Below, in pieces: positions 8,181 through 54,075 of a DNA stretch of 64,000 nt (the first letter of the stretch is position 1; the number at the start of each line of letters is the position of its first letter). Under the pieces are notes generated by a model. The model was not told the DNA's origin. It saw only the letters and a program-made list of their open reading frames with translations, and made no database searches. A program made the position numbers and the translations under genes. Location: sequence record MZ170040.1; one strand, given 5' to 3'. The stretch is from Escherichia phage vB_EcoM_FJ1.

Positions 8181-8196
8181 AGGGGCCGAAGCCCCT
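8181..8196 (-). terminator. GC-stem UUCG-loop hairpin
   Basis: AGGGGC-CGAA-GCCCCT (minus strand GGGGCUUCGGCCCC), flanked by A/T runs. Confidence 0.55.
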
Positions 8197-8201
8197 TTGC
8201 T

Positions 8202-8438
8202 TTAAATTTCTATTGTGTGACGCGATATAACGGACTTGCCATCTTTATTTGTGGTTTTGATAATCGCATGAAATGCGCGTTGGTGCGGGTAAACTAATCG
8301 TTGGAATTCTTTTTGGAATTCTATTTGTTTATCTTCCGGGAGGTCAAAAACCAGTTGGGTAGAAGACAGACCATATGTTTGTTTTAGATTTTCGAATATT
8401 AGAAAAGCTTCGGTAAACTGAATCTCTGATTGTGTCAT
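8202..8438 (-). CDS. hypothetical protein between regA and 43
   Basis: Track ORF 8202..8489 overlaps the regA end; the first ATG at 8438 (MTQSEIQF...) gives 78 aa with no overlap. Confidence 0.4.
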   Translation of the reverse strand: MTQSEIQFTEAFLIFENLKQTYGLSSTQLVFDLPEDKQIEFQKEFQRLVYPHQRAFHAIIKTTNKDGKSVISRHTIEI

Positions 8439-10343: not shown

Positions 10344-10377
10344 AATTTCCTCATTCAAGTTTTAGTGTAAATTATAA

Positions 10378-10391
10378 AGGGCCGAAGCCCT
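10378..10391 (-). terminator. GC-stem UUCG-loop hairpin between 45 and 44
   Basis: AGGGC-CGAA-GCCCT. Confidence 0.5.
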
Positions 10392-10394
10392 CTA

Positions 10395-11081
10395 TTAAAA
10401 ATCGTGGGTAGAATCAGCTTCAAGAGCTACTACATAATTCGCGTGTTCACCTTCAAATTTAGCAGCGCCTTGTTTACCTTTTGCCCAGAGCAGAAGTTTA
10501 TAATTTCCTGGTTGCATTTTCATATTTGCCATATTGATAATGAAATTAAATGTATTTTCACCATCATAATCACCAAGAGTCAAAGAATATTTAACACGGG
10601 TCAGAGCAGAATCTTCTACTTTATTAAAACCGTTAATTACGATTTTACCTTCTTTTACCGTGATAGCAATTGTATCAATTTGCAGACCACGAGATACACG
10701 CAACAGTTGTTGAAGGTCTTCAGCTTTAATTTCAGTAACAACAGATGCTACCGGGAATGGAATTGGTTTATTAGGAGCAACTACTGTACTCGGATCGGCT
10801 GCTGGCCAAAAAATTGTTGAACGAGCATCAGCAATTTTAATATTTCCATCTTCTGACTGGGAAATTTCTGCATCATCATTAACTAGAGACAGAATACCGA
10901 GAAAACCGTTCAAATCGTAAATTGCTACATCAAAATCAATAACGTCAGAAATATTTGCTTCCGCATAAGTTGTACCATTAACTGCGCGAGTCATAATAAA
11001 TTGACCGGATTTAAGCATAATGCCAGAGTTAATAGTAGCGAAATTTTTCAAAATATTCAGTGTATCTTTAGACAGTTTCAT
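10395..11081 (-). CDS. 45: sliding clamp gp45
   Basis: 228-aa ORF, same length and position as T4 gp45. Confidence 0.9.
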   Translation of the reverse strand: MKLSKDTLNILKNFATINSGIMLKSGQFIMTRAVNGTTYAEANISDVIDFDVAIYDLNGFLGILSLVNDDAEISQSEDGNIKIADARSTIFWPAADPSTVVAPNKPIPFPVASVVTEIKAEDLQQLLRVSRGLQIDTIAITVKEGKIVINGFNKVEDSALTRVKYSLTLGDYDGENTFNFIINMANMKMQPGNYKLLLWAKGKQGAAKFEGEHANYVVALEADSTHDF

Positions 11082-13477: not shown

Positions 13478-14332
13478 TCACAATGAAGAAAATTCTTTAA
13501 CTAAAGCCTGTAATGAAGCCTCTATTGGATATCCGTTCTTAACTAACATTTTCCTAAACATCACATGTTTAGGACGATTATATGATATCCACAATTCATA
13601 CAATTTATCTTTATTATCCCAATGATAGCCTTTTCGTCGAGATGCTATATGAGCTTTTCTAATCTCCGGATTTTTCCAACTAGCAGCTACTGAATTTGAT
13701 ATAGCTATTTTATATTCAGGTTTTGATAAAGCAGCACGAACAGCCTTTTGGTGTTTAATTTTATTTTCTTCGTTATTAAACCATTCCCTTGAAGCCATTG
13801 AAATTTTTTGTTTTGTTTTAAAATTATTTAATCTTTCTTTGTTATCTTTCCTATTTTTTGCTACTGAAAAATATTTTAATGCCCTTTCTCTAGCAGCATT
13901 TCTATTTTGTGGATTTGAATAATACTGTTGAAGCCTTTTTGATATTGTGTCACTTACATCTTGTTTTATAAAACTATATTCAGCAGCTATTAAATCAACT
14001 TCGGCTAAAGATAAATTTTTATATGTTTTTCCTGACATCATTCTATTTAAAGCATTTAGCATTTTTCCATTTTTACCTTTTGCTAATAAGAAATGTGCTT
14101 TAAAATGATTAAAATGACTTAAATTAACTAAATTCCATGTAGATTTTAAATATTCAGGAAATATTGATTTAGGAAGCACGTGATGTGCTTCCGTTTTACC
14201 TGGAGTTTTAACAGTTGAATTCATAGAAATAAAATTAATGTAAGACTTGGCGTCTTCTTCACTCAACGCTAATTTTTCAACTAATTCCTTTATTAAAAAT
14301 TCATCATTAATGTCAAGTTTAAAATTCTTCAC
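13478..14332 (-). CDS. HNH-family homing endonuclease-like protein
   Basis: 284 aa, GTG start overlapping the upstream stop; HHVLPKS...N...HFNHFKAH HNH-like motif; lysine-rich, AT-rich; inserted between genes 47 and 46. Confidence 0.65.
   Translation of the reverse strand: MKNFKLDINDEFLIKELVEKLALSEEDAKSYINFISMNSTVKTPGKTEAHHVLPKSIFPEYLKSTWNLVNLSHFNHFKAHFLLAKGKNGKMLNALNRMMSGKTYKNLSLAEVDLIAAEYSFIKQDVSDTISKRLQQYYSNPQNRNAARERALKYFSVAKNRKDNKERLNNFKTKQKISMASREWFNNEENKIKHQKAVRAALSKPEYKIAISNSVAASWKNPEIRKAHIASRRKGYHWDNKDKLYELWISYNRPKHVMFRKMLVKNGYPIEASLQALVKEFSSL
14296..14332. repeat. direct repeat copy A (about 37 bp, core 18 bp exact)
   Basis: ATTCATCATTAATGTCAA at 14299-14316 recurs at 14502-14519 with similar flanks; encodes DINDEF in both the HNH N-terminus and the upstream ORF. 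Confidence 0.7.
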
Positions 14333-15795: not shown

Positions 15796-15957
15796 ATATC
15801 AAGAACCGTCATTGAAATGCAAAATAAAATTATTGAAATAAATCCATCTGGAGTGCTAAAGAACCCAATCCAACATGCTCTAGTGAATAGATAAAATGCA
15901 AGAAAAAGTATCACATATCCAAGAAATATCATTATATCAAACTCCGTATAAAGCTAA

Positions 15958-15971
15958 AGGGCCGAAGCCCT
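15958..15971 (-). terminator. GC-stem UUCG-loop hairpin after a-gt
   Basis: AGGGC-CGAA-GCCCT directly after the a-gt stop codon. Confidence 0.55.
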
Positions 15972-17174
15972 TTATTTTGTAATAATGTCAAACTGTTCTT
16001 TAAAACAGAAGCTTGAATCTTGATGCTGATACAAAAATTCATATGCTTTTTCTCGCTCACGGTCATAAAGAGCTCGGTCAGATGACAGTTCTTTAATACG
16101 CTCGAATGTTGATTCCATGTCATTTTCATCAAACCAAATGATACCGCTATCATGCGAGGTCAAAGGAGTATTATCAACACGGAATTTTAAATTTTCGCCA
16201 GTAGATTTCCAGAAAACAGGAATTGTACCGCAAGCACCTAATTCAAGATGAGTATATTCTAGTGAGCGTTGTAAGTATTTCTGGTTAAGTTTACTCAACT
16301 GATATCCAAAGCCAGATTTACTCATTCGTTCAAGCATTTCACTATTAATATAACAATCTAGGATTTGTGCCGGTTGATTCGGCGTGAGATTCATTTTATC
16401 GATCTCACGATTACCGTAATATTCATACGGAATACCTTTTTCCTTAATTGCAATAAAAGCAGGGGAACGTTCAAGACCTTCCATTACAGTGGATTTACCA
16501 GCAGGTTTTAAGAATTTTTCGTGAAAATCAAACATCTGGTAAAAACCTTTCCATGTAGTCGTACGACCAATCCAACGATTGATATTCATGTTAATTTCAG
16601 AAACATCTTTCCAGTAGGTTGATCGAACTTTCGCAATATCCATAGGAGGCTGAAAGTTATATACGGTCGGTGCTTCTTCAATATCATCAAACAGAGAAAC
16701 AGTTTCTGGATACCATTCTTTCATCAAAACTTTATTAAAATCGCCATTATCAGAATGACTAAAAATAACATCAGCTCGACGAACAGTTTCTTCTAATCCC
16801 AAATTTCGACGCAAAGAAAGAACAGAATGATCATGCTGATAAACTACAACACGAATAGAAGGTTTAATATTATCTAAAAGTTTTTTATAGTTATTAATCG
16901 TGGCTTCTTGAACGGAAGTAGCAGGAACAGAATTAATAATTAGAATATCACAATCATTTACCAGCTTAAGTGCTTTATCGTATTCTTTAGCTAAAATAAC
17001 TGGAATTGAAAATGATTTGTGGTCATGAGAACTTGTACGAGTAAATGATTTATCTTTAGCATAAACCAAAGTTACTTCATGACCATTCTTAATAAACCAA
17101 TCACGTTGCTCAAGAGAAAATTTAGTTACACCACAACCTTCAAGACCTCGAGCCATAAAAATACATACTTTCAT
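15972..17174 (-). CDS. a-gt: DNA alpha-glucosyltransferase
   Basis: 400-aa ORF, near-identical to T4 alpha-glucosyltransferase as recalled (MKVCIFMARGLEGCGVTKFSLEQRDWFIKNGHEVTLVYAK...). Confidence 0.9.
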   Translation of the reverse strand: MKVCIFMARGLEGCGVTKFSLEQRDWFIKNGHEVTLVYAKDKSFTRTSSHDHKSFSIPVILAKEYDKALKLVNDCDILIINSVPATSVQEATINNYKKLLDNIKPSIRVVVYQHDHSVLSLRRNLGLEETVRRADVIFSHSDNGDFNKVLMKEWYPETVSLFDDIEEAPTVYNFQPPMDIAKVRSTYWKDVSEINMNINRWIGRTTTWKGFYQMFDFHEKFLKPAGKSTVMEGLERSPAFIAIKEKGIPYEYYGNREIDKMNLTPNQPAQILDCYINSEMLERMSKSGFGYQLSKLNQKYLQRSLEYTHLELGACGTIPVFWKSTGENLKFRVDNTPLTSHDSGIIWFDENDMESTFERIKELSSDRALYDREREKAYEFLYQHQDSSFCFKEQFDIITK

Positions 17175-31484: not shown

Positions 31485-32012
31485 TTATGCGAGTACCGTC
31501 TTTAACCGTTCTTCAAACTTCCGAAGAGTATTTTGGCGTTCAGCTCTTTGCTTTTTGTAAGTTTCAATACGCTCTGAAATGAGAGTGTATCGTTCATTTA
31601 CTGATTCTTTCATAAAATCAGGAATTTCACGAGAAGCTTTAATCTCATCAAATTTATCAATAACAGCTTGCTCTTCAGCAATTAAGTTATCATACATCAA
31701 AATATCTTTCTTGATGAACTCAATATCTTCTTGAGTTACACGAGATAATTTAGATGCTTTATCCTTTTTGTACTGTTCGTTAGTATCACGAGACCAATGT
31801 AATGTACGATTTTTATTCGTATTCTTGTAAATTTCTACAATACCAATCTCATCGATAATAACGATCCAATTCCAACGAGATTTGTAAATTTGTCCTCCAT
31901 CAACAGTGATTTCACCTCCGATTGAGATGTCATTAAAGAACTTGCTTTGTGCTTCTGATTTAAATTTACCATCGTTGTAATTTACCAGGTTGAAAATATC
32001 TTTAGCGTTCAT
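31485..32012 (-). CDS. hypothetical protein
   Basis: ATG at 32012 (MNAKDIFNLV...) with GGAGG upstream; the track start at 32072 lies inside the promoter. Confidence 0.5.
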   Translation of the reverse strand: MNAKDIFNLVNYNDGKFKSEAQSKFFNDISIGGEITVDGGQIYKSRWNWIVIIDEIGIVEIYKNTNKNRTLHWSRDTNEQYKKDKASKLSRVTQEDIEFIKKDILMYDNLIAEEQAVIDKFDEIKASREIPDFMKESVNERYTLISERIETYKKQRAERQNTLRKFEERLKTVLA

Positions 32013-32040
32013 TTTGTGTTCCTCCGTAGTTGATAGTTGT

Positions 32041-32070
32041 ATAGTACCACAGAGGAACGGTCTTGTAAAC
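32041..32070 (-). promoter_or_regulatory. early promoter (GTTTAC family)
   Basis: GTTTAC at 32070-32065, TACTAT at 32046-32041. Confidence 0.6.
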
Positions 32071-32072
32071 AA

Positions 32073-32387
32073 CTAAAAGAAACTTCTTTCACAATTTTTT
32101 CCACTGAACCATGCGCTCACTGCTTTCTTAGTCTCAGGAGCAGTATTATCCATAAACCATTCAAAGGCAGCCTTTTTATGATTCTGGAGGGCTTCTCGGG
32201 CTTTAATCTGCTCACGGTCTATTAACACTAACATATGAGCCTTTCTTGTCACCAAGGGCTTCTTATGATTCTTGGAGTATTCCCAGTCATTTGTCCAACG
32301 CATTGTCGTTGCGAACTGATGAACCGCGTCTTTAATTTTAGTTTCGTAAATTTCACGAGCCTTTGAGTATAACATCACTACCTCCAT
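32073..32387 (-). CDS. hypothetical protein
   Basis: 104-aa ORF. Confidence 0.45.
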   Translation of the reverse strand: MEVVMLYSKAREIYETKIKDAVHQFATTMRWTNDWEYSKNHKKPLVTRKAHMLVLIDREQIKAREALQNHKKAAFEWFMDNTAPETKKAVSAWFSGKNCERSFF

Positions 32388-32477
32388 TTACCAGTTTAAT
32401 TCTAGTCATCTTTTTGATGGCAGTCCATATAATCTATTTCTGAACTGCCTTTTTGTCTTAGAAGGCCTCTTATGAAT

Positions 32478-33446
32478 TTATTTCAGAAGAGTAACCTCAG
32501 CGATTTCTTGCCAACCGTTTTTGTCGGTCATAATAAAGTCAGCAAGATAAAGTGCAGTACGCAGTGAAACATTGCGTAAACGGTTAACATTGACTTTCAT
32601 CCATGATAATGCTTTATAAGTTTCTTCATCAGAAAGACCGCGCTTTTGCATCATGTCGGTTGAAAGAATAACATCTTCAACCCTGACCATAATTTCTTCA
32701 TTAGTGTGAACACCCAAATCTAAATAAACTGAGCGGGACACTAATGCTTGTAAATGTGGAGCAAGTTTAGTACCACGGTCTAATTCGCGGTCAATGTCAA
32801 CGTTTGTGATAAAAACAATCGTTCCTTTAAATTCAAACTCACGCTCAATGCCTTTTTCTTCTAAGTAAGAAGATGCAGTGCTCCAGCAGACTTTACGGGT
32901 CTCTCCGGTGTCCAGAGCGGCTTTTAGAAGATTAAGAATGTCCATATCAGAGAAAACATCCACATCATCAATCAAAAGGACAGAATTCTCTTCACGATTA
33001 TTCCAAAGCTGTTCATAAAGACCGATACCAGAGATTTTACCGTTAATGCTTTTATATTCAATGTATCCAATATCATTTGCTTTATTTAAAGCTTTATCTA
33101 AAGAATACGTTTTACCAATACCCGCCGCACCAGAGATAATTAATGAACGAATATTTCCATTAATAATACCATTCGTCATCATTCCCATAACATTAAATCT
33201 TTTATTAATGCGGGTTTTCATATCTTCATACGATTCTTTAACTTCTTCAACTTTTACACCATCATATGAAATGTCTGATTTGTAAACCCAAACACCGCGA
33301 CGTTTACCGTCAATTTCAACAAAAACTTTACCATCTCCTTGTGCATCTACCGGAGCATTATCTGGGAACCATTCGCCTAAGAGCTCAAAAGTTCCAGAGA
33401 TTTCTTTACCGAAGTAGATACCCTTATTGATAGTTACAGTTTTCAT
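32478..33446 (-). CDS. P-loop NTPase (AAA-like)
   Basis: 322 aa; Walker A GAAGIGKTY, Walker B VLLIDDVD; ATG at 33446 with GGAG upstream. Confidence 0.6.
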   Translation of the reverse strand: MKTVTINKGIYFGKEISGTFELLGEWFPDNAPVDAQGDGKVFVEIDGKRRGVWVYKSDISYDGVKVEEVKESYEDMKTRINKRFNVMGMMTNGIINGNIRSLIISGAAGIGKTYSLDKALNKANDIGYIEYKSINGKISGIGLYEQLWNNREENSVLLIDDVDVFSDMDILNLLKAALDTGETRKVCWSTASSYLEEKGIEREFEFKGTIVFITNVDIDRELDRGTKLAPHLQALVSRSVYLDLGVHTNEEIMVRVEDVILSTDMMQKRGLSDEETYKALSWMKVNVNRLRNVSLRTALYLADFIMTDKNGWQEIAEVTLLK

Positions 33447-33464
33447 TTTATTCTCCTTTGATTT

Positions 33465-33492
33465 GATAGGACTACTATAACATAGTCCTATC
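33465..33492. repeat. perfect 10-bp inverted repeat (hairpin, 8-nt loop)
   Basis: GATAGGACTA-ctataaca-TAGTCCTATC, about 19 nt upstream of the NTPase ATG; no U-tract follows on the minus strand. Confidence 0.6.
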
Positions 33493-33503
33493 AGTTTGTA
33501 TAC

Positions 33504-33704
33504 TTATTTTGACATTTCTTCGATGTCACGACGATACCCGTCACGAACTTCACGAAGAGCTTCAAGGCCACACATAGGCTCGATACCAGTAATGTGAACT
33601 TGATTAATCTGATACTCTACATCTTCTAACTGAGCGAAAACATAACGACGTTCAGCTGCACAACCAGATTTAGCTTTACCGAAACGTTTATTCAAAGTAG
33701 TCAT
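33504..33704 (-). CDS. hypothetical protein
   Basis: 66-aa ORF. Confidence 0.4.
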   Translation of the reverse strand: MTTLNKRFGKAKSGCAAERRYVFAQLEDVEYQINQVHITGIEPMCGLEALREVRDGYRRDIEEMSK

Positions 33705-33742
33705 TTTGTATCTCCAATTTACTCATTTGTTTTGATAGGTCT

Positions 33743-33772
33743 ATAGTATCAACAACTACAGACCATGTAAAC
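33743..33772 (-). promoter_or_regulatory. early promoter (GTTTAC family)
   Basis: GTTTAC at 33772-33767, TACTAT at 33748-33743. Confidence 0.55.
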
Positions 33773-33775
33773 AAT

Positions 33776-34039
33776 TTATTTTAATTTTCGCCAAATTTTT
33801 ACTGCTTCTCGCCTCGATACTTCTACGGCGCCAAGTTCTATAGCTTTTTGACGACGACTTGCACGTAAGTCATAATGTTTAATGCGTTTATCTTGAAACC
33901 AAGAACGTTTCATTCCTATTGCTTCTGCCATTTCGTGAAGCTCTTCAATATCTCCATCAGTGAACATATGACAATTTTTAGTTGGATGACCGCGAAGTTT
34001 CCATCCATGATTCATTAAAACATCTACGTAAACTGTCAT
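33776..34039 (-). CDS. conserved phage protein (DUF4031-like)
   Basis: 87 aa, MTVYVDVLMNHGWKLRGHPTKNCHMFTD...RSWFQ...HYDL pattern typical of a small conserved phage family. Confidence 0.45.
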   Translation of the reverse strand: MTVYVDVLMNHGWKLRGHPTKNCHMFTDGDIEELHEMAEAIGMKRSWFQDKRIKHYDLRASRRQKAIELGAVEVSRREAVKIWRKLK

Positions 34040-34185
34040 TGATTCTTCTCCAAATAAGTTTCGATAATTTTCTGGGCGAGATAAACCGCGTTATCTTCAG
34101 TTGCGTCTTCTAAGAAACTTTCAAAACACTCTGAAATTTCTTCTGTATCAATCAACTTTTTTACTTCAATTGGTGTAATTTTCAT
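34036..34185 (-). CDS. small acidic protein (49 aa)
   Basis: ATG at 34185; stop overlaps the next start as ATGA; below the ORF-track cutoff. Confidence 0.3.
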   Translation of the reverse strand: MKITPIEVKKLIDTEEISECFESFLEDATEDNAVYLAQKIIETYLEKNQ

Positions 34186-34221
34186 TTTGTTTTCCGTTTA
34201 AGTGTTTGTTTTGATAGTTGT

Positions 34222-34251
34222 ATAGTACCATAAAGCTTTATGCTTGTAAAC
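34222..34251 (-). promoter_or_regulatory. early promoter (GTTTAC family)
   Basis: GTTTAC at 34251-34246, TACTAT at 34227-34222. Confidence 0.55.
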
Positions 34252-34281
34252 AGTTTTGTGAAAAATTTTTGAAATAAAAAA

Positions 34282-34299
34282 GGGAGCCCGAAGGCTCCC
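34282..34299 (-). terminator. GC-stem GNRA-loop hairpin
   Basis: GGGAGCC-CGAA-GGCTCCC directly after the 34302 ORF stop. Confidence 0.55.
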
Positions 34300-34301
34300 T
34301 A

Positions 34302-35315
34302 TCATTTATAATAGCTTCGGTGGTTTTCAAGATAAACCTTCTCAAGGAAGTCATCCCAGAAACCCATGTCTACTTTTTGCTGCATACCGTTCTTAGAAGC
34401 TTCAGTAGATGCTGCTTCTACTTGATCGACCACATCTTCCAAAAACTCTTGAACTGTTTTAAATGGATGTTTACCCAACTTCACGTCGAGAATAAATGGA
34501 GCATCTTGGAGTGGATAAACCAAGTCACCAGTTTTGTAAATTTCCAATAGTTGGAGTCCACCACGGCAGGCATGGCTCAGAGCTTTCCAGTCAATGCCTT
34601 CATTGGCTTCGGCCTTACGAGCGCGTTCACCGTATTCAGCATCTAATTTGTTCAGTGACTGCTTAAGCTCAATAAGAGAAAGCGTTGTCTGATATTTACG
34701 ACCCAACACAGTGTAGAACATTTGTGGGCCTGTTTTCTCATGATTATGGAACACCCATTCACAGAATTCGTTTTCTGGAAGACGATGCTTAATATCTTCA
34801 ACTTTAGTACGACGCTGCTTAATAGAACCATCTTCTTGGTAATCAATCCATTGCTCAGGGATTTGATTAACTACTTTCAATACATCACGTAATGCAGCCA
34901 AACGAGAACCCTTGACGCCATATTTAGAAGCTTGCTTACGGACATATCCTAAATAGGATTTCATGTTAGTCGTATAAAAACGAGAACGGTTGTCTTGAAT
35001 AAACTTCCACACATCAGGCAAATCAGATTTAACCACTAGTTCAGGTGGAGTGTGAAGCATATCCAATGCTACGGTTTCACCATCTGCTGCTAATTTAAAG
35101 AAATATTTAAGACTGTATAGTTCATGGTCAATATCATCTTTAGTGTTTTTAGATGATGTGTTGTTAGTGTTTTTACTCATATGCTCTTTAACATTTCCGA
35201 TAAGAATATCGCGAGCAGGAGGAACAAAGATTTCTTTAAAATCTACATCAGATTCTGGGGTAGAAGTTCCATAAAGATGACTACCAAAATAGCTTTTCAT
35301 TACTGTTTTCATCAT
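34302..35315 (-). CDS. nucleotidyltransferase-fold protein (Pol-beta-like GS...DxD)
   Basis: 337 aa; N-terminal FGSHLYGTSTPESDVDF fits the hG[GS]x9-13DxD minimal NTase signature; helical C-terminal domain. Confidence 0.55.
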   Translation of the reverse strand: MMKTVMKSYFGSHLYGTSTPESDVDFKEIFVPPARDILIGNVKEHMSKNTNNTSSKNTKDDIDHELYSLKYFFKLAADGETVALDMLHTPPELVVKSDLPDVWKFIQDNRSRFYTTNMKSYLGYVRKQASKYGVKGSRLAALRDVLKVVNQIPEQWIDYQEDGSIKQRRTKVEDIKHRLPENEFCEWVFHNHEKTGPQMFYTVLGRKYQTTLSLIELKQSLNKLDAEYGERARKAEANEGIDWKALSHACRGGLQLLEIYKTGDLVYPLQDAPFILDVKLGKHPFKTVQEFLEDVVDQVEAASTEASKNGMQQKVDMGFWDDFLEKVYLENHRSYYK

Positions 35316-37439: not shown

Positions 37440-37469
37440 ACTATACCATAACCTTGCCAACTTGTAAAC
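37440..37469 (-). promoter_or_regulatory. early promoter (GTTTAC, 18 nt, TATAGT)
   Basis: GTTTAC at 37469-37464, TATAGT at 37445-37440. Confidence 0.55.
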
Positions 37470-42090: not shown

Positions 42091-42120
42091 ATTATACCAC
42101 AGTCAAGAGGAAAAGTAAAC
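42091..42120 (-). promoter_or_regulatory. early promoter (GTTTAC, 18 nt, TATAAT)
   Basis: GTTTAC at 42120-42115, TATAAT at 42096-42091. Confidence 0.6.
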
Positions 42121-48016: not shown

Positions 48017-48032
48017 AGGGGCCGAAGCCCCT
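48017..48032 (-). terminator. GC-stem UUCG-loop hairpin
   Basis: AGGGGC-CGAA-GCCCCT. Confidence 0.55.
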
Positions 48033-48037
48033 TATCA

Positions 48038-48631
48038 TTATTTCAGAGAATTAATGTATTCCTGAACATCGGCAGAGGTAGTTTCAACCCCAGAAATATT
48101 ACCATTAAAGGTTTCAACTCGAGCAAGAGTATCTTCAATATCAACCTTAGTCAGTGCTGCAATTTCAACTACATCATCAGCAGTACTAATTCCAAGGGCA
48201 TTTGCTGCACGAGTTTCACGGATATATTCCAATTTAACCGCAAGTTCTTGGCGTGCATCATCTAACTCAACTACTTTCTTGGCGATTTCAATTCGCATTT
48301 CAGCATAACCATCAGCTTTAGTAGTCAACTGCTCAGCTGTTCGACGATATAGCAAGCCGAGTTTAGCATGCATTGTTACATCTTGACCTTCGGAAAGAAG
48401 CTTGCGAATTTCACGCTCTTTTGATTCGGCCTGCTTATTCTTTTCGACAATAAGTTCACGAATACGCTTTTCTTCATTAATAGATTTAACAGAAGCAGTT
48501 TTTAGGTCTTTAATTTTATCAAGCAGTTTTGCTGCTGCGGCAGTATACTGTTCTTCAACAGATAGATTTTTAGCCATAGCAGAACCAAGTTTAGTGCGAA
48601 TAAACTCAACAATTTTCTTCAGTGTGTTCAT
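48038..48631 (-). CDS. hypothetical coiled-coil protein
   Basis: 197 aa, strongly helical and charged. Confidence 0.5.
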
Positions 48632-49105: not shown

Positions 49106-49162
49106 TATGTTCTCCTCAAGTTATAGGCTCATAATATCTCAATCATGAGCCTGTGTACACAA

Positions 49163-50530: not shown

Positions 50531-50607
<77 letters not shown>

Positions 50608-50610
50608 TAG

Positions 50611-51276
50611 TTAAAATTTCATTTTTCGACCTTTAAACCATCCTTCTGGAATTGGGTCAGTTTTCTTAATACGTTTAGAAACTTTTTCATCTAATGAATG
50701 AATCCACATCATACCAAATTGGGAATTCTTTTCACCTTTTTGGTGATTATTTTTAGCATGAATTTCTTTCATTTTATTAATAGTTTCAAGAGTATGATGC
50801 TTATTTAAAAATCGGCTATTATTTAAAAATTTTTCTTTGTATTCAGGAGTTGACCACAAACGGTTAAATACATTTGAACCATTTTTACGATATTTTTCTT
50901 GAAGTAAAATATCATTTTTAAAACGTGACTTAAACGATTTAGCTCCTTTTAAACTAGCGTCTTTCTTCTGATTTAGCATCTCAGGAATATTTATATGATC
51001 CCATCCACCTTCACCGCCAAGTTTTAAATTATACACATCAGGTCTATTTAAAAACTCTTCTGTGACAATATTTTTCTCGGCTTCAAGCATAGATTCTTTA
51101 TCATCAAAATACTCTAATATTTCTTTAGAAAAATTTTCTATGCCATACTTATCTTGGGCTCTTTTTAATAATTTACCAGAACCCATATATCCATCATCTA
51201 AATTTTCGGTAGAATGCACACCAATATAAATTTTATTATTAATTTTATTTGTTATTTTATAAAGATAAAAATGCAT
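50611..51276 (-). CDS. segB: GIY-YIG homing endonuclease SegB-like
   Basis: ATG at 51276 gives 222 aa beginning MHFYLYKITNKINNKIYIGV (GIY...YIG); lies inside the tRNA cluster as T4 segB does; the longer track ORF would overlap tRNA-Tyr. Confidence 0.7.
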   Translation of the reverse strand: MHFYLYKITNKINNKIYIGVHSTENLDDGYMGSGKLLKRAQDKYGIENFSKEILEYFDDKESMLEAEKNIVTEEFLNRPDVYNLKLGGEGGWDHINIPEMLNQKKDASLKGAKSFKSRFKNDILLQEKYRKNGSNVFNRLWSTPEYKEKFLNNSRFLNKHHTLETINKMKEIHAKNNHQKGEKNSQFGMMWIHSLDEKVSKRIKKTDPIPEGWFKGRKMKF

Positions 51277-51322
51277 ATCAGTCCCTAATAAAGAACTGAG
51301 CGTCTCACGACGAGTCATAAAT

Positions 51323-51409
51323 TGGTGGGGAGTGGTGGAGTCGAACCACCCGAGTCGCAATGACAATGGATTTACAGTCCACACCGCTACCTCTACGGGA
51401 TAACTCCCC
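51323..51409 (-). tRNA. type-II tRNA, anticodon GUA (tRNA-Tyr)
   Basis: Manual fold: acceptor GGGGAGT/ACTCCCC, anticodon loop CTGTAAA, long variable arm, T-arm GGTGG-TTCGACT-CCACC, CCA encoded; resembles E. coli tRNA-Tyr (GACUGUAAAUC, GUCAU). Confidence 0.65.
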
Positions 51410-51418
51410 TAATTAATT

Positions 51419-51495
51419 TGGTGACCCAGACCAGATTTGAACTGGTAACCTTTCCCTTATGAGGGGACTGCTGCTAACCATTGAGCTACAGGGCC
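51419..51495 (-). tRNA. tRNA with CAU anticodon (Ile lysidine-type, or Met)
   Basis: Acceptor GGCCCTG/CTGGGTC with one U-U mismatch, anticodon loop CTCATAA, T-loop TTCAAAT, CCA encoded; same position as T4 tRNA-Ile. Confidence 0.6.
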
Positions 51496-51496
51496 T

Positions 51497-51572
51497 TGGT
51501 GCTGATTGACGGAATCGAACCGCCGACCTTCTCATTACAAGTGAGTTGCTCTACCTACTGAGCTAAATCAGC
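51497..51572 (-). tRNA. tRNA-Thr (UGU)
   Basis: GCTGATTTAGCTCAGTAGGTAGAGC...CTTGTAAT...GGTTCGATTCC...AATCAGCACCA; canonical cloverleaf. Confidence 0.85.
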
Positions 51573-51574
51573 AA

Positions 51575-51661
51575 CGGAGGCGATAGGATTTGAACCTATG
51601 AGTCGCCGGAGCGACTGCCGGTTTTCAAGACCGGTGCATTAAACCACTCTGCCACGCCTCC
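51575..51661 (-). tRNA. tRNA-Ser (UGA), type II
   Basis: GGAGGCGTGGCAGAGTGGTTTAATGCACCGGTCTTGAAAACCGG... with long variable arm; matches T4 tRNA-Ser as recalled. Confidence 0.9.
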
Positions 51662-51663
51662 AG

Positions 51664-51737
51664 TCTCCGTGGCAGGATTTGAACCTACGACATTCTGCTC
51701 CCAAAGCAGACGCTCTACCAAACTGAGCTACACGGAG
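51664..51737 (-). tRNA. tRNA-Pro (UGG)
   Basis: Acceptor CTCCGTG/CACGGAG, anticodon loop TTTGGGA, T-loop TTCAAAT. Confidence 0.85.
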
Positions 51738-51747
51738 TAAATTAAAT

Positions 51748-51821
<74 letters not shown>

Positions 51822-51826
51822 AAATT

Positions 51827-51913
51827 TGGTGCGAGAAGTGGGACTCGAACCCACATGGAAATCATTCCGCAGCATTTTAAGTGCTGTGCCTTTACCAATT
51901 TGACCATTCTCGC
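51827..51913 (-). tRNA. tRNA-Leu (UAA), type II
   Basis: GCGAGAATGGTCAAATTGGTAAAGGCACAGCACTTAAAATGCTGC... with long variable arm; matches T4 tRNA-Leu as recalled. Confidence 0.9.
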
Positions 51914-51914
51914 G

Positions 51915-51987
51915 CTGGGAATAAAGGACTCGAACCTTTGCATCCTGGAATCAAAATCCAGTGCCTTACCAACTTGGCTAATTCCCA
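51915..51987 (-). tRNA. tRNA-Gln (UUG)
   Basis: Acceptor TGGGAAT/ATTCCCA, anticodon loop TTTGATT, T-loop TTCGAGT; abuts tRNA-Leu. Confidence 0.85.
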
Positions 51988-52970: not shown

Positions 52971-53000
52971 ATAGTATCACAACTAAAACCCTATGTAAAC
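52971..53000 (-). promoter_or_regulatory. early promoter (GTTTAC family)
   Basis: GTTTAC at 53000-52995, TACTAT at 52976-52971. Confidence 0.55.
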
Positions 53001-53018: not shown

Positions 53019-53306
53019 TTACAAAAGATTTTTAGCAATAATCTTGAGATGTGCCGCAGAAATGTGTTTAGCTTTAAACAACGCAGTTTCTTCAGCAGGA
53101 GAGATAACGATTGTAGCACCATCCTTTTTAGCAGACCACCCATCACCTAGGTAAACAGTACCTTTGATTTCTTCGCCATCAACCAGACTAATCATTGGTT
53201 TACCTTCTCGTCCTTTATTTGCTTTAATAACTTCAGAAGTAAGAGTAGCCTCGGTAATGGTAGAAACCGGGGTAGTTGTAGAAGTAAATTCTTTAAATGT
53301 TTTCAT
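53019..53306 (-). CDS. internal protein I-like (CTS-bearing) at the ipI locus
   Basis: 95 aa beginning MKTFKEF (CTS-like), Lys/Ala-rich; sits between the tRNA region and 57B where T4 has ipI; same length as T4 IPI. Confidence 0.6.
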   Translation of the reverse strand: MKTFKEFTSTTTPVSTITEATLTSEVIKANKGREGKPMISLVDGEEIKGTVYLGDGWSAKKDGATIVISPAEETALFKAKHISAAHLKIIAKNLL

Positions 53307-53336
53307 TTTATTTTCCTAATTAATTTTGATGAGGTA

Positions 53337-53366
53337 ATAGTATCACTACCTCATCAACGTGTAAAC
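53337..53366 (-). promoter_or_regulatory. early promoter (GTTTAC family)
   Basis: GTTTAC at 53366-53361, TACTAT at 53342-53337. Confidence 0.55.
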
Positions 53367-53378
53367 AACTTTGTGAAA

Positions 53379-54075
<697 letters not shown>

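Follow-up and report, generated by a model that had tools for sequence, protein, structure and literature searches.

Organisation of the nrdC.10 Locus

The stretch of DNA analysed here (the window, 64,000 nucleotides of Escherichia phage vB_EcoM_FJ1, record MZ170040.1) comes from a Tequatrovirus (T4-like) genome and carries at 32478..33446, on the minus strand, a gene for a 322-aa AAA+ ATPase, which is identified as the ortholog of T4 nrdC.10 by its open reading frame, its identity to T4 NrdC.10 and its match to phrog_1250. According to the ORF list, every gene around nrdC.10 lies on the minus strand; this orientation of both the gene and the hairpin in front of it had been missed in the earlier note on this DNA. 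The position of nrdC.10 between nrdC.11 and nrdC.9 is kept: nrdC.9 (DUF7203, 32073-32387) is the downstream neighbour and an nrdC.11-like nucleotidyltransferase gene (34302-35315) lies upstream. Three small ORFs intervene on the nrdC.11 side, namely a 49-codon ORF, a DUF4031 gene and a 66-codon ORF, here called orf66 (33504..33704, minus strand), which the ORF list and PHROGs assign to phrog_6200, a family with no functional label.

Three transcription signals face nrdC.10 on the minus strand. The most distant (34222..34300) comprises a T4-type terminator (34281-34300) and an early promoter similar to P54.4 (34250-34222); in T4, the terminator and P54.4 lie directly upstream of nrdC.10, and the window keeps this pair, with the three small ORFs now standing between it and the gene. 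A canonical early promoter of the form TTTACA-17-TACTAT with TGn is located upstream of orf66 (33738..33771, 49.6 bits in the weight matrix described below) and possesses its own bracketing stem, GGUCUGUAG/CUAUAGACC, with one G·U pair included. The third is a T4-early-type promoter-like site (33474..33502) in the gap between orf66 and nrdC.10, with TATACA at -35 (33502-33497) and TATAGT at -10 (33479-33474), separated by a 17-nt spacer (33496-33480) that ends in TGn (33482-33480).

The cassette to which this third site belongs is intergenic, extending from the orf66 stop codon TAA (33506-33504) to the Shine-Dalgarno sequence (SD, 33456-33453) and the ATG at 33446, and on the minus strand it reads TAA (stop)-G-TATACA-AACTGATAGGACTATGT-TATAGT-AGTCCTATCAAATCAAAGGAGAATAAAATG. 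Its spacer contains the 5' arm of the hairpin, while the 3' arm begins on the final base of the -10 element and crosses the expected start site. The earlier note regarded the hairpin as an isolated element close to the ribosome-binding site, a view which we do not retain, since the arms flank the TGn/-10 of an early-type promoter and the whole forms a repeated mobile cassette.

To score the site, we derived a promoter weight matrix (PWM) from 20 other early promoters, leaving out the nrdC.10 site and two close paralogues. The site scored 10.2 bits and ranked 16 of 127,868 positions, with canonical sites at 27-58 bits. This low score is explained by the replacement of the UP-like tract by coding sequence and by a T to A change in the -35 element: the 25 nt upstream of the -35 belong to orf66; they have 72% AT and do not contain the canonical TTTTCACAAAAC tract. 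Given its low score and apparently absent UP element, the local nrdC.10 promoter may be inactive.

The SD and its A-rich tail (33446..33456, minus strand; GGAG at 33456-33453, the tail entering the ATG at 33446-33444) read GGAGAAUAAAA. Durand et al. (2006, PMC1702504) described the target of RegB/S1 as a single-stranded 11-mer, GGAGRAYARAA, with the T4 consensus GGAGAAUAAAA. Positions 33456-33446 are thus an exact 11-nt match to this consensus, unpaired in the predicted RNA fold, and represent a candidate RegB site; 7 nt separate it from the end of the stem, which leaves the SD outside the stem.

NrdC.10 Is a Conserved AAA+ ATPase

At the nucleotide level, nrdC.10 of the window is 97% identical to its T4 counterpart, and the proteins are 99% identical over 316 aa, so that the choice of T4 nrdC.10 for comparison in the earlier note was the right one. 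The two genes share nrdC.9 downstream and nrdC.11 upstream; they differ in the final C-terminal residues of their products (325 aa in T4, 322 aa in the window), in the upstream regulatory cassette and in the three extra small ORFs that precede nrdC.10 in the window. The protein matches phrog_1250 over residues 1-322 (1.8e-166), a PHROGs family without functional label, and its 1008 homologs come mainly from T4-like phages of enterobacteria, Acinetobacter, Aeromonas and Vibrio.

The P-loop NTPase motifs noticed earlier were found again, Walker A as GAAGIGKT and Walker B as VLLIDDVD, in invariant alignment columns (G106-T113 and D160/D161): G106, G109, G111, K112, T113, D160 and D161 do not vary across 26 homologs. 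Invariance extends to N215, R184, R291/R296 and R238, the last within an SRS motif, which are candidates for the sensor 1, arginine finger and sensor 2 residues. The observation that no further domain can be named also stands. All Pfam matches are sub-threshold: AAA_14 scored 23.5 bits and AAA_22 21.2 bits (cut-off 27 for both), with nSTAND3 as the third match below its cut-off. A sequence search of the PDB with NrdC.10 returned nothing but a designed helical protein at E = 0.11, and searches with PADLOC and NCBIfam yielded no match for the NrdC.10 ATPase, NrdC.11 or orf66.

Structure prediction had been proposed as a check in the earlier note. An AlphaFold (AF2) model built from the 26 homologs (pLDDT 88) begins with an N-terminal beta domain (residues ~1-61); the ATPase core (~100-245) is of the P-loop alpha-beta-alpha type and is followed by a helical lid (~249-320), which is the AAA+ architecture. 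The fold matches generic AAA+ proteins at 9-18% identity. An attempt to place it in a clade was given up because the fold scores are flat across MoxR, NtrC, DnaA/ORC, RFC, RuvB and NSF; from generic AAA+ proteins (MoxR/NorQ/CbbQ, NtrC-type, DnaA/ORC/Cdc6, RFC, RuvB) NrdC.10 differs by its phage-specific N-terminal beta domain. NrdC.10 could represent an AAA+ clade so far undescribed.

The T4 record AAD42628 is annotated as a "conserved hypothetical protein", a weak AAA match is the sole remark made on nrdC.10 in a 2006 comparative paper, and our full-text literature search on nrdC.10 and its neighbours retrieved no functional study. These data clearly indicate that the ORF at 32478-33446 is the ortholog of T4 nrdC.10 and encodes a conserved, functionally uncharacterised AAA+ ATPase.

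Structure of the Hairpin

As described in the earlier note, GATAGGACTA-N8-TAGTCCTATC forms an exact inverted repeat, which lies at 33465..33492; even when up to 3 mismatches are allowed, the window has no second copy of it. The hairpin itself is slightly larger (33464..33493, minus strand): its 5' arm UGAUAGGACUA (33493-33483) and 3' arm UAGUCCUAUCA (33474-33464) form 11 Watson-Crick pairs, to which U33482·G33475, closing a 6-nt loop, adds a twelfth. Only 4 of these 12 pairs are G-C, the stem being AT-rich. On the sense (minus) strand, 18 nt separate the 10-bp repeat from the ATG, close to the 19 nt estimated before, and the repeat does lie 5' of the GGAG. The sense strand 3' of the stem reads AAAUCAAAGGAG / AAAUCAAAGGAGAAUAAAAUG, with no U-tract, in agreement with the earlier reading.

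Folding of the 5' untranslated region, another check that had been suggested, predicts that the stem forms in RNA (-17.7 kcal/mol, z = -3.45; of 200 shuffles, 1 is equally good), and that the SD and AUG of nrdC.10 stay unpaired in both the MFE and the centroid folds, so that the SD is not sequestered here. The corresponding DNA fold has -8.6 kcal/mol (z = -3.36). A search of Rfam at a permissive threshold over 32000-35000 returned nothing at the hairpin and sub-threshold noise near 34200-34400.

Perfect inverted repeats of at least 10 bp with a loop of 3-12 nt occur at three loci of the window, giving 5 stem/loop listings as against 1.2 +/- 1.3 in shuffled sequences; a perfect repeat of this size is on its own only mildly unusual. 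One of these loci, at 53326, is another early promoter with its stem in the same position as that of the nrdC.10 hairpin. It is this promoter context, 53326 together with the class-level test presented below, that leads us to judge the nrdC.10 hairpin non-random.

Bracketing Stems Are a Feature of T4-Type Early Promoters

The window contains a repeat family of T4 early promoters on the same strand as nrdC.10. For the class-level test, we compared 29 promoters of the T4 early type, 14 from the window and 15 from a 50-kb portion of Mosigvirus SHSML-52-1. Pairing between the spacer and the downstream region is stronger within a promoter, where it averages -11.6 kcal/mol, than between promoters, where the mean is -7.4 kcal/mol (p<5e-5 in a permutation test on the 29 promoters), and stems of at least 9 Watson-Crick pairs were found in 11 of 29 own pairings as compared with 4.6% of cross pairings. 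About half of the early promoters in the window and in this one Mosigvirus genome carry a bracketing stem. The stem is therefore a class feature of T4-type early promoters and not a coincidence.

It is the architecture that is shared, the stem sequences being unrelated: UUGAUGAGGUA/UACCUCAUCAA at 53366, AGGCUCAU/AUGAGCCU at 49160 and AGUUGGCAAGGUU/AAUCUUGUCAACU at 37469, while the promoter directly upstream of nrdC.10 in phage ECML-134 has yet another stem, AGGGUAGUA/UAUUACCCU. Two classes can be distinguished by the position of the 3' arm, which falls in the start-site region in the first (the nrdC.10 hairpin, 33772 and 53366) and over the SD in the second (32070 and 42120, and 15530 and 28767 in L004).

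Folding energy favours the sense strand at 19 of the 29 promoters. Among the non-Watson-Crick positions of the real stems, read on the transcribed strand, 12 are G·U and 2 are A·C, which gives p = 0.006 against a 50:50 expectation and p ~0.07 against the 99:55 ratio of the cross-pair control. We considered this asymmetry as a proof of RNA-level selection and rejected it as such; the G·U excess is suggestive only, because the cross-paired control stems already stand at 99:55.

Four promoters lie behind a clear classical terminator, and all of them are devoid of a bracketing stem. Though this concerns four promoters only, it hints that bracketing stems substitute for terminators as transcript-boundary elements.

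Conservation and Exchange of the Cassette

For stem conservation, we used 16 related copies of the nrdC.10 hairpin cassette. Across them 92.7% of cells are paired, a share that drops to 30-63% if the partner is slid. AU, GC and GU take turns at pair 13-38, and all variants of the 5' arm remain wobble-compatible with the 3' arm, which is fixed; a C·A mismatch is present in one copy and a G·A mismatch in a second. Because the cassette copies are related, the covariation control (5 of 500 shuffles) overstates independence. The pairing in the stem is under selection.

A scan of IMG/VR with CTGATAGG-N16-CCTATCA was tried as a further source of covariation and abandoned, nearly all its matches being unrelated palindromes; the T4-like ones were only L025, which is identical to the window, and L013/L033.

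The 1.5 kb around nrdC.10 and the hairpin match 659 phage records, mostly at 95-99% identity, and the arrangement of the window is present in ~55 of the 659; phage slur03 has the identical sequence over 33441-33790. It is precisely in the cassette upstream of nrdC.10 that T4, ECML-134 and the window differ from one another. The orf66 and hairpin cassette is absent from T4 and ECML-134, each of which has another cassette in its place; ECML-134 possesses the 49-codon ORF and the DUF4031 gene without orf66 and the hairpin cassette. The earlier note had staked its reading on the ATPase being poorly characterised and on the hairpin recurring in relatives. The outcome is mixed: the ATPase proved to be a known T4 ORF, though not a well characterised one, and the hairpin, absent in T4, is kept in those ~55 records and in Mosigvirus copies.

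In Mosigvirus phages, the module comprising orf66 and the hairpin (33441-33772 in the window) is ~95% identical and stands before a different, unrelated gene near the lysozyme/nudix region; the gene upstream of orf66 in these phages is not an NrdC.11 homolog. A Mosigvirus genome has the hairpin cassette at 6-8 places, and wobble as well as compensatory variants of it occur. In Mosigvirus phi25-307, a canonical cassette with GTTTACA, an AT-rich upstream tract and the identical stem precedes an internal-head-protein gene.

The points at which similarity switches fall within a shared early-leader segment, CTATCAA ... GGAGAAUAAAAUG / CTATCAA ... GGAG, and in the chimeric copy L045 the upstream homology breaks inside the 5' arm. 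The cassette has a defined architecture, is repeated, and has moved and been exchanged between genomes.

Possible Role of the Hairpin

PeSLs are cassettes that unite an early promoter with a stem-loop, in which the stem can lie between -35 and -10 or overlap the -10 (Arbiol 2010, PMC2839356). We think it fairly probable that the nrdC.10 hairpin belongs to a PeSL-like cassette of early promoter and overlapping repeat, imported with orf66 and having a putative role in defining a transcript boundary. While the cassette and its exchange are directly visible in the genome comparisons, the RNA-level role of the stem and the activity of the local promoter are what we infer from them.

The cassette copy arrived together with orf66 by exchange within the shared leader segment. 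Since the local copy seems to have lost its UP element and has a weakened -35, most nrdC.10 transcripts probably originate 270 nt upstream, at the strong promoter before orf66. This orf66-upstream promoter is also the likely source of read-through RNA bearing the hairpin: only such RNA would have both arms and fold, and a transcript initiated locally would have its 5' end within the 3' arm and remain without the fold. RegB would then cut the nrdC.10 SD, leaving an orf66 RNA that ends in a stable hairpin, and the hairpin would shield this upstream RNA from 3' exonucleases after the cut. The stem may in addition partly attenuate read-through, and the conserved DNA of the cassette would supply homology for modular shuffling. 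A 12-bp stem should be too short for an RNase III site, and this reading was set aside. A putative role as a processing or stabilising RNA element, which was one of the options in the earlier note, remains plausible.

Could the repeat act in DNA alone? It might promote the insertion, excision and exchange of single-ORF cassettes as a stretch of extra homology or as a hairpin or cruciform that forms during replication or recombination, in line with the mini-circle model for PeSLs, the RNA hairpin being a by-product. We consider this unlikely, although it would account for the cassette lying exactly at the indel boundaries among T4, ECML-134 and the window, for its multiple copies in Mosigvirus genomes and for the predicted stability of the stem as DNA. 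The L045 break inside the 5' arm points the same way, as does a crossover that was mapped inside a PeSL loop (Arbiol 2010, PMC2839356). Homology alone, however, does not need complementary arms, and folding energy at most of the 29 promoters favours the sense strand. The 3' arms that cover the SD at 32070, 42120 and the two L004 promoters are sensible only in RNA, and the preponderance of G·U on the transcribed strand, suggestive as it is, goes in the same direction.

The hairpin might also be an inherited relic, functional in the canonical cassette that precedes internal-protein genes and carried along with orf66 to nrdC.10, where it would have no selected function. The promoter half of such copies is indeed degraded, its -35 reading GTATACA or GTGTACA and the UP element being apparently absent, and the module, 95-100% identical between genera, was imported recently, so that the stem has had little time to decay. 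What makes this explanation distinctly improbable is that a weakened -35 with an intact stem recurs in different contexts (L038, L041b, L044b, L045b and L002b), the pairing being kept in these copies save for wobble changes and one mismatch.

Termination is a still weaker candidate. The earlier note preferred an operator or a processing site to a terminator, and the dismissal of the terminator stands: with no U-tract on the sense strand, a classical intrinsic terminator is rejected, and the small share of G-C pairs also speaks against one. What could be left is a weak attenuation of sense read-through, or antisense termination on the plus strand through the hairpin followed by GTTTGTATACTTATTTT, and both seem to us very unlikely. 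A consensus scan does list the hairpin as terminator-like on the plus strand, but the T-tract there is interrupted, the region has 3 terminator-like sites where 2.4 are expected from shuffles, and it contains no plus-strand genes that need termination. More favourable to termination are the stemless promoters behind classical terminators and a phi1/RB49 PeSL stem-loop which, in a reporter, equalled rrnB T1 in termination (Arbiol 2010, PMC2839356).

The operator, another of the options in the earlier note, at which a dimeric phage or host protein would bind the palindrome GATAGGACTA/TAGTCCTATC and repress a subset of early promoters, is barely credible: the palindrome does overlap the -10, a classic repressor position, and recurs at several promoters in Mosigvirus genomes, but no candidate binding protein emerged, the stems of other promoters are unrelated to it in sequence and place their arms differently, and the variants differ by wobble pairs in one arm, which break the palindromic symmetry yet keep the pairing in RNA.

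Returning to the boundary role of the PeSL-like cassette, we can extend it, with more doubt than conviction, to a general RNA-level insulation code for the early-gene cassettes of T-even phages, written in promoter-embedded stems; separately, NrdC.10 may belong to a new AAA+ clade. The 5' arm would be placed in the promoter spacer, hence the stem would fold only in transcripts coming from the upstream cassette. The 3' arm would either sequester the next SD, with the gene being translated solely from its own promoter, or, as in nrdC.10, form a cap just upstream of a RegB site, by which the upstream message would have its 3' end both set and shielded. If true, such a code would explain why stems survive despite the decay of their promoters.

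What looked like an odd hairpin is thus explained by a mobile regulatory cassette of a known kind, a finding that is real but ordinary; T4, ECML-134 and FJ1 provide a clean three-way case of single-ORF cassette shuffling outside the IP loci.

Comparison with Known Systems

In the hairpins of T4 e, soc, 49 and I-TevI, transcripts that start at an internal promoter lack the helix's 5' strand and therefore do not fold, as long transcripts from upstream do (Uzan & Miller 2010, PMC3014915). The nrdC.10 hairpin would follow a similar internal-promoter logic. It differs in that the helix of the T4 examples sequesters the SD or AUG and their internal promoter is late or middle, whereas the SD of nrdC.10 is free and its promoter is of the early type. 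The neighbouring promoters at 32070 and 42120 fit the SD-sequestering pattern.

The PeSLs of phi1/RB49, for which the overlapping stem position is documented, acted as terminators or attenuators in a reporter and as recombination sites giving mini-circles (Arbiol 2010, PMC2839356). They were later extended to T4 and PST, where "degraded" copies were remarked upon and the stem was drawn just upstream of the promoter (Comeau 2014, PMC4122927). The nrdC.10 cassette resembles them in being intergenic, from a stop codon to the next SD/ATG, in combining a sigma70-type early promoter with a stem-loop, and in occurring in multiple copies in variable regions, at the boundaries of insertions, deletions and replacements between close relatives. 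In contrast to the G/C-rich terminators tested in phi1/RB49, its stem is AT-rich and no U-tract follows it; the nrdC.10 copy also has a weak promoter that lacks the canonical AT-rich upstream part, and its stem is not upstream of the promoter as drawn for PST/T4.

The repeats of the T-even IP loci, attributed to work by Repoila in 1994, are reportedly ~70 bp long and consist of a T4 early promoter with an overlapping inverted repeat. As relayed by Arbiol (2010, PMC2839356), these IP-locus elements are analogous to PeSLs, lie on T4 early promoters and have weaker, AT-rich stems. The same paper suggested that they might confine shuffling to the IP loci. The likeness to the nrdC.10 cassette covers the T4 early promoter type, the AT-rich overlapping stems of variable size and the small shuffled ORFs that are flanked. 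In the window, ipI (PF11634, 53019-53306) lies between two such promoters, at 53366 and 53000, and the nrdC.10 stem sequence precedes the internal-head-protein gene of phi25-307. The difference is one of place, the nrdC.10 copy being located between nrdC.11 and nrdC.10. Judged by sequence, the nrdC.10 hairpin is the stem-loop of this known type of promoter/stem-loop cassette, situated outside an IP locus and with its promoter half degraded.

Early promoters and inverted repeats

At two minus-strand early promoters of the window the spacer pairs with the downstream Shine-Dalgarno (SD) region: at 32041-32070, upstream of nrdC.8, through the stem GUUCCUCUGUGGU/ACUACGGAGGAAC, and at 42091-42120, upstream of another gene, through the stem UUUCCUCUUGACUG/CAGUUAAGAGGAGA. 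In both, the SD would be masked in read-through RNA and free in RNA started at the promoter itself.

Apart from the hairpin upstream of nrdC.10, only one short-looped inverted repeat in the window is a perfect 10-bp match, located at 13552-13574 (TCCTAAACAT-CAC-ATGTTTAGGA). A G/C-rich hairpin, (A)GGG(G)CCGAAGCCC(C)TT, is followed by T-rich sequence and recurs at 8181-8204, 10375-10396, 15955-15980, the 19594-15615 region and 48017-48040; these copies, with their GAAG tetraloops, resemble intrinsic terminators that differ little from one another and form one family.

A chimeric copy of the nrdC.10 hairpin cassette (early promoter plus inverted repeat) was observed at 4300-4400 of L045, the IMG/VR contig 2706795553_000001. 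Its homology to the cassette starts within the 5' arm, the break falling between …CAGGGAC and TATGTTATAGTAGTCCTAAC, and the sequence upstream is unrelated, which may represent a recombination junction inside the stem.

Gene content around nrdC.10 and the tRNA cluster

Between the P54.4-like early promoter and orf66, the 66-codon ORF upstream of nrdC.10, an 87-aa DUF4031 protein and an overlapping 49-aa ORF are inserted (33776-34185, minus strand); T4 has neither of them at this position, and the comparison phage ECML-134 has both. The nrdC.11 ortholog (34302-35315, minus strand), a neighbour of the AAA+ NrdC.10 gene, matches Pfam RlaP (2.6e-11), described as an “RNA repair pathway DNA polymerase beta family” nucleotidyltransferase. 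In a T4 genome-reduction study, nrdC.1-6 and nrdC.11-mobD.3 were among the spontaneous large deletions (PMC9825161), and these two blocks flank the nrdC.7-nrdC.10 segment on both sides.

Nine tRNA genes (Arg, Tyr, Met, Thr, Ser, Pro, Gly, Leu and Gln) occupy 50531-51987 on the minus strand, where tRNA-Arg is separated from the other eight by a GIY-YIG (Seg-like) homing-endonuclease ORF (50611-51384, minus strand). Since this ORF as listed overlaps tRNA-Tyr, its true start is probably located further in.

The ipI locus

The ipI gene (53019-53306; PF11634, nuclease inhibitor IPI) has on each side a minus-strand early promoter with a bracketing stem, whose 5' arm lies in the -35/-10 spacer and 3' arm downstream (52971-53000 and 53337-53366); the stem of one of them is the 11-bp perfect repeat at 53326-53357. 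Adjoining ipI, in the position of T4 57B, is a 151-aa ORF (53379-53834, minus strand) matching Pfam Acb1, an anti-CBASS protein (2.6e-60). The location of ipI between two stem-bearing early promoters is the classical arrangement of an internal protein (IP) locus.
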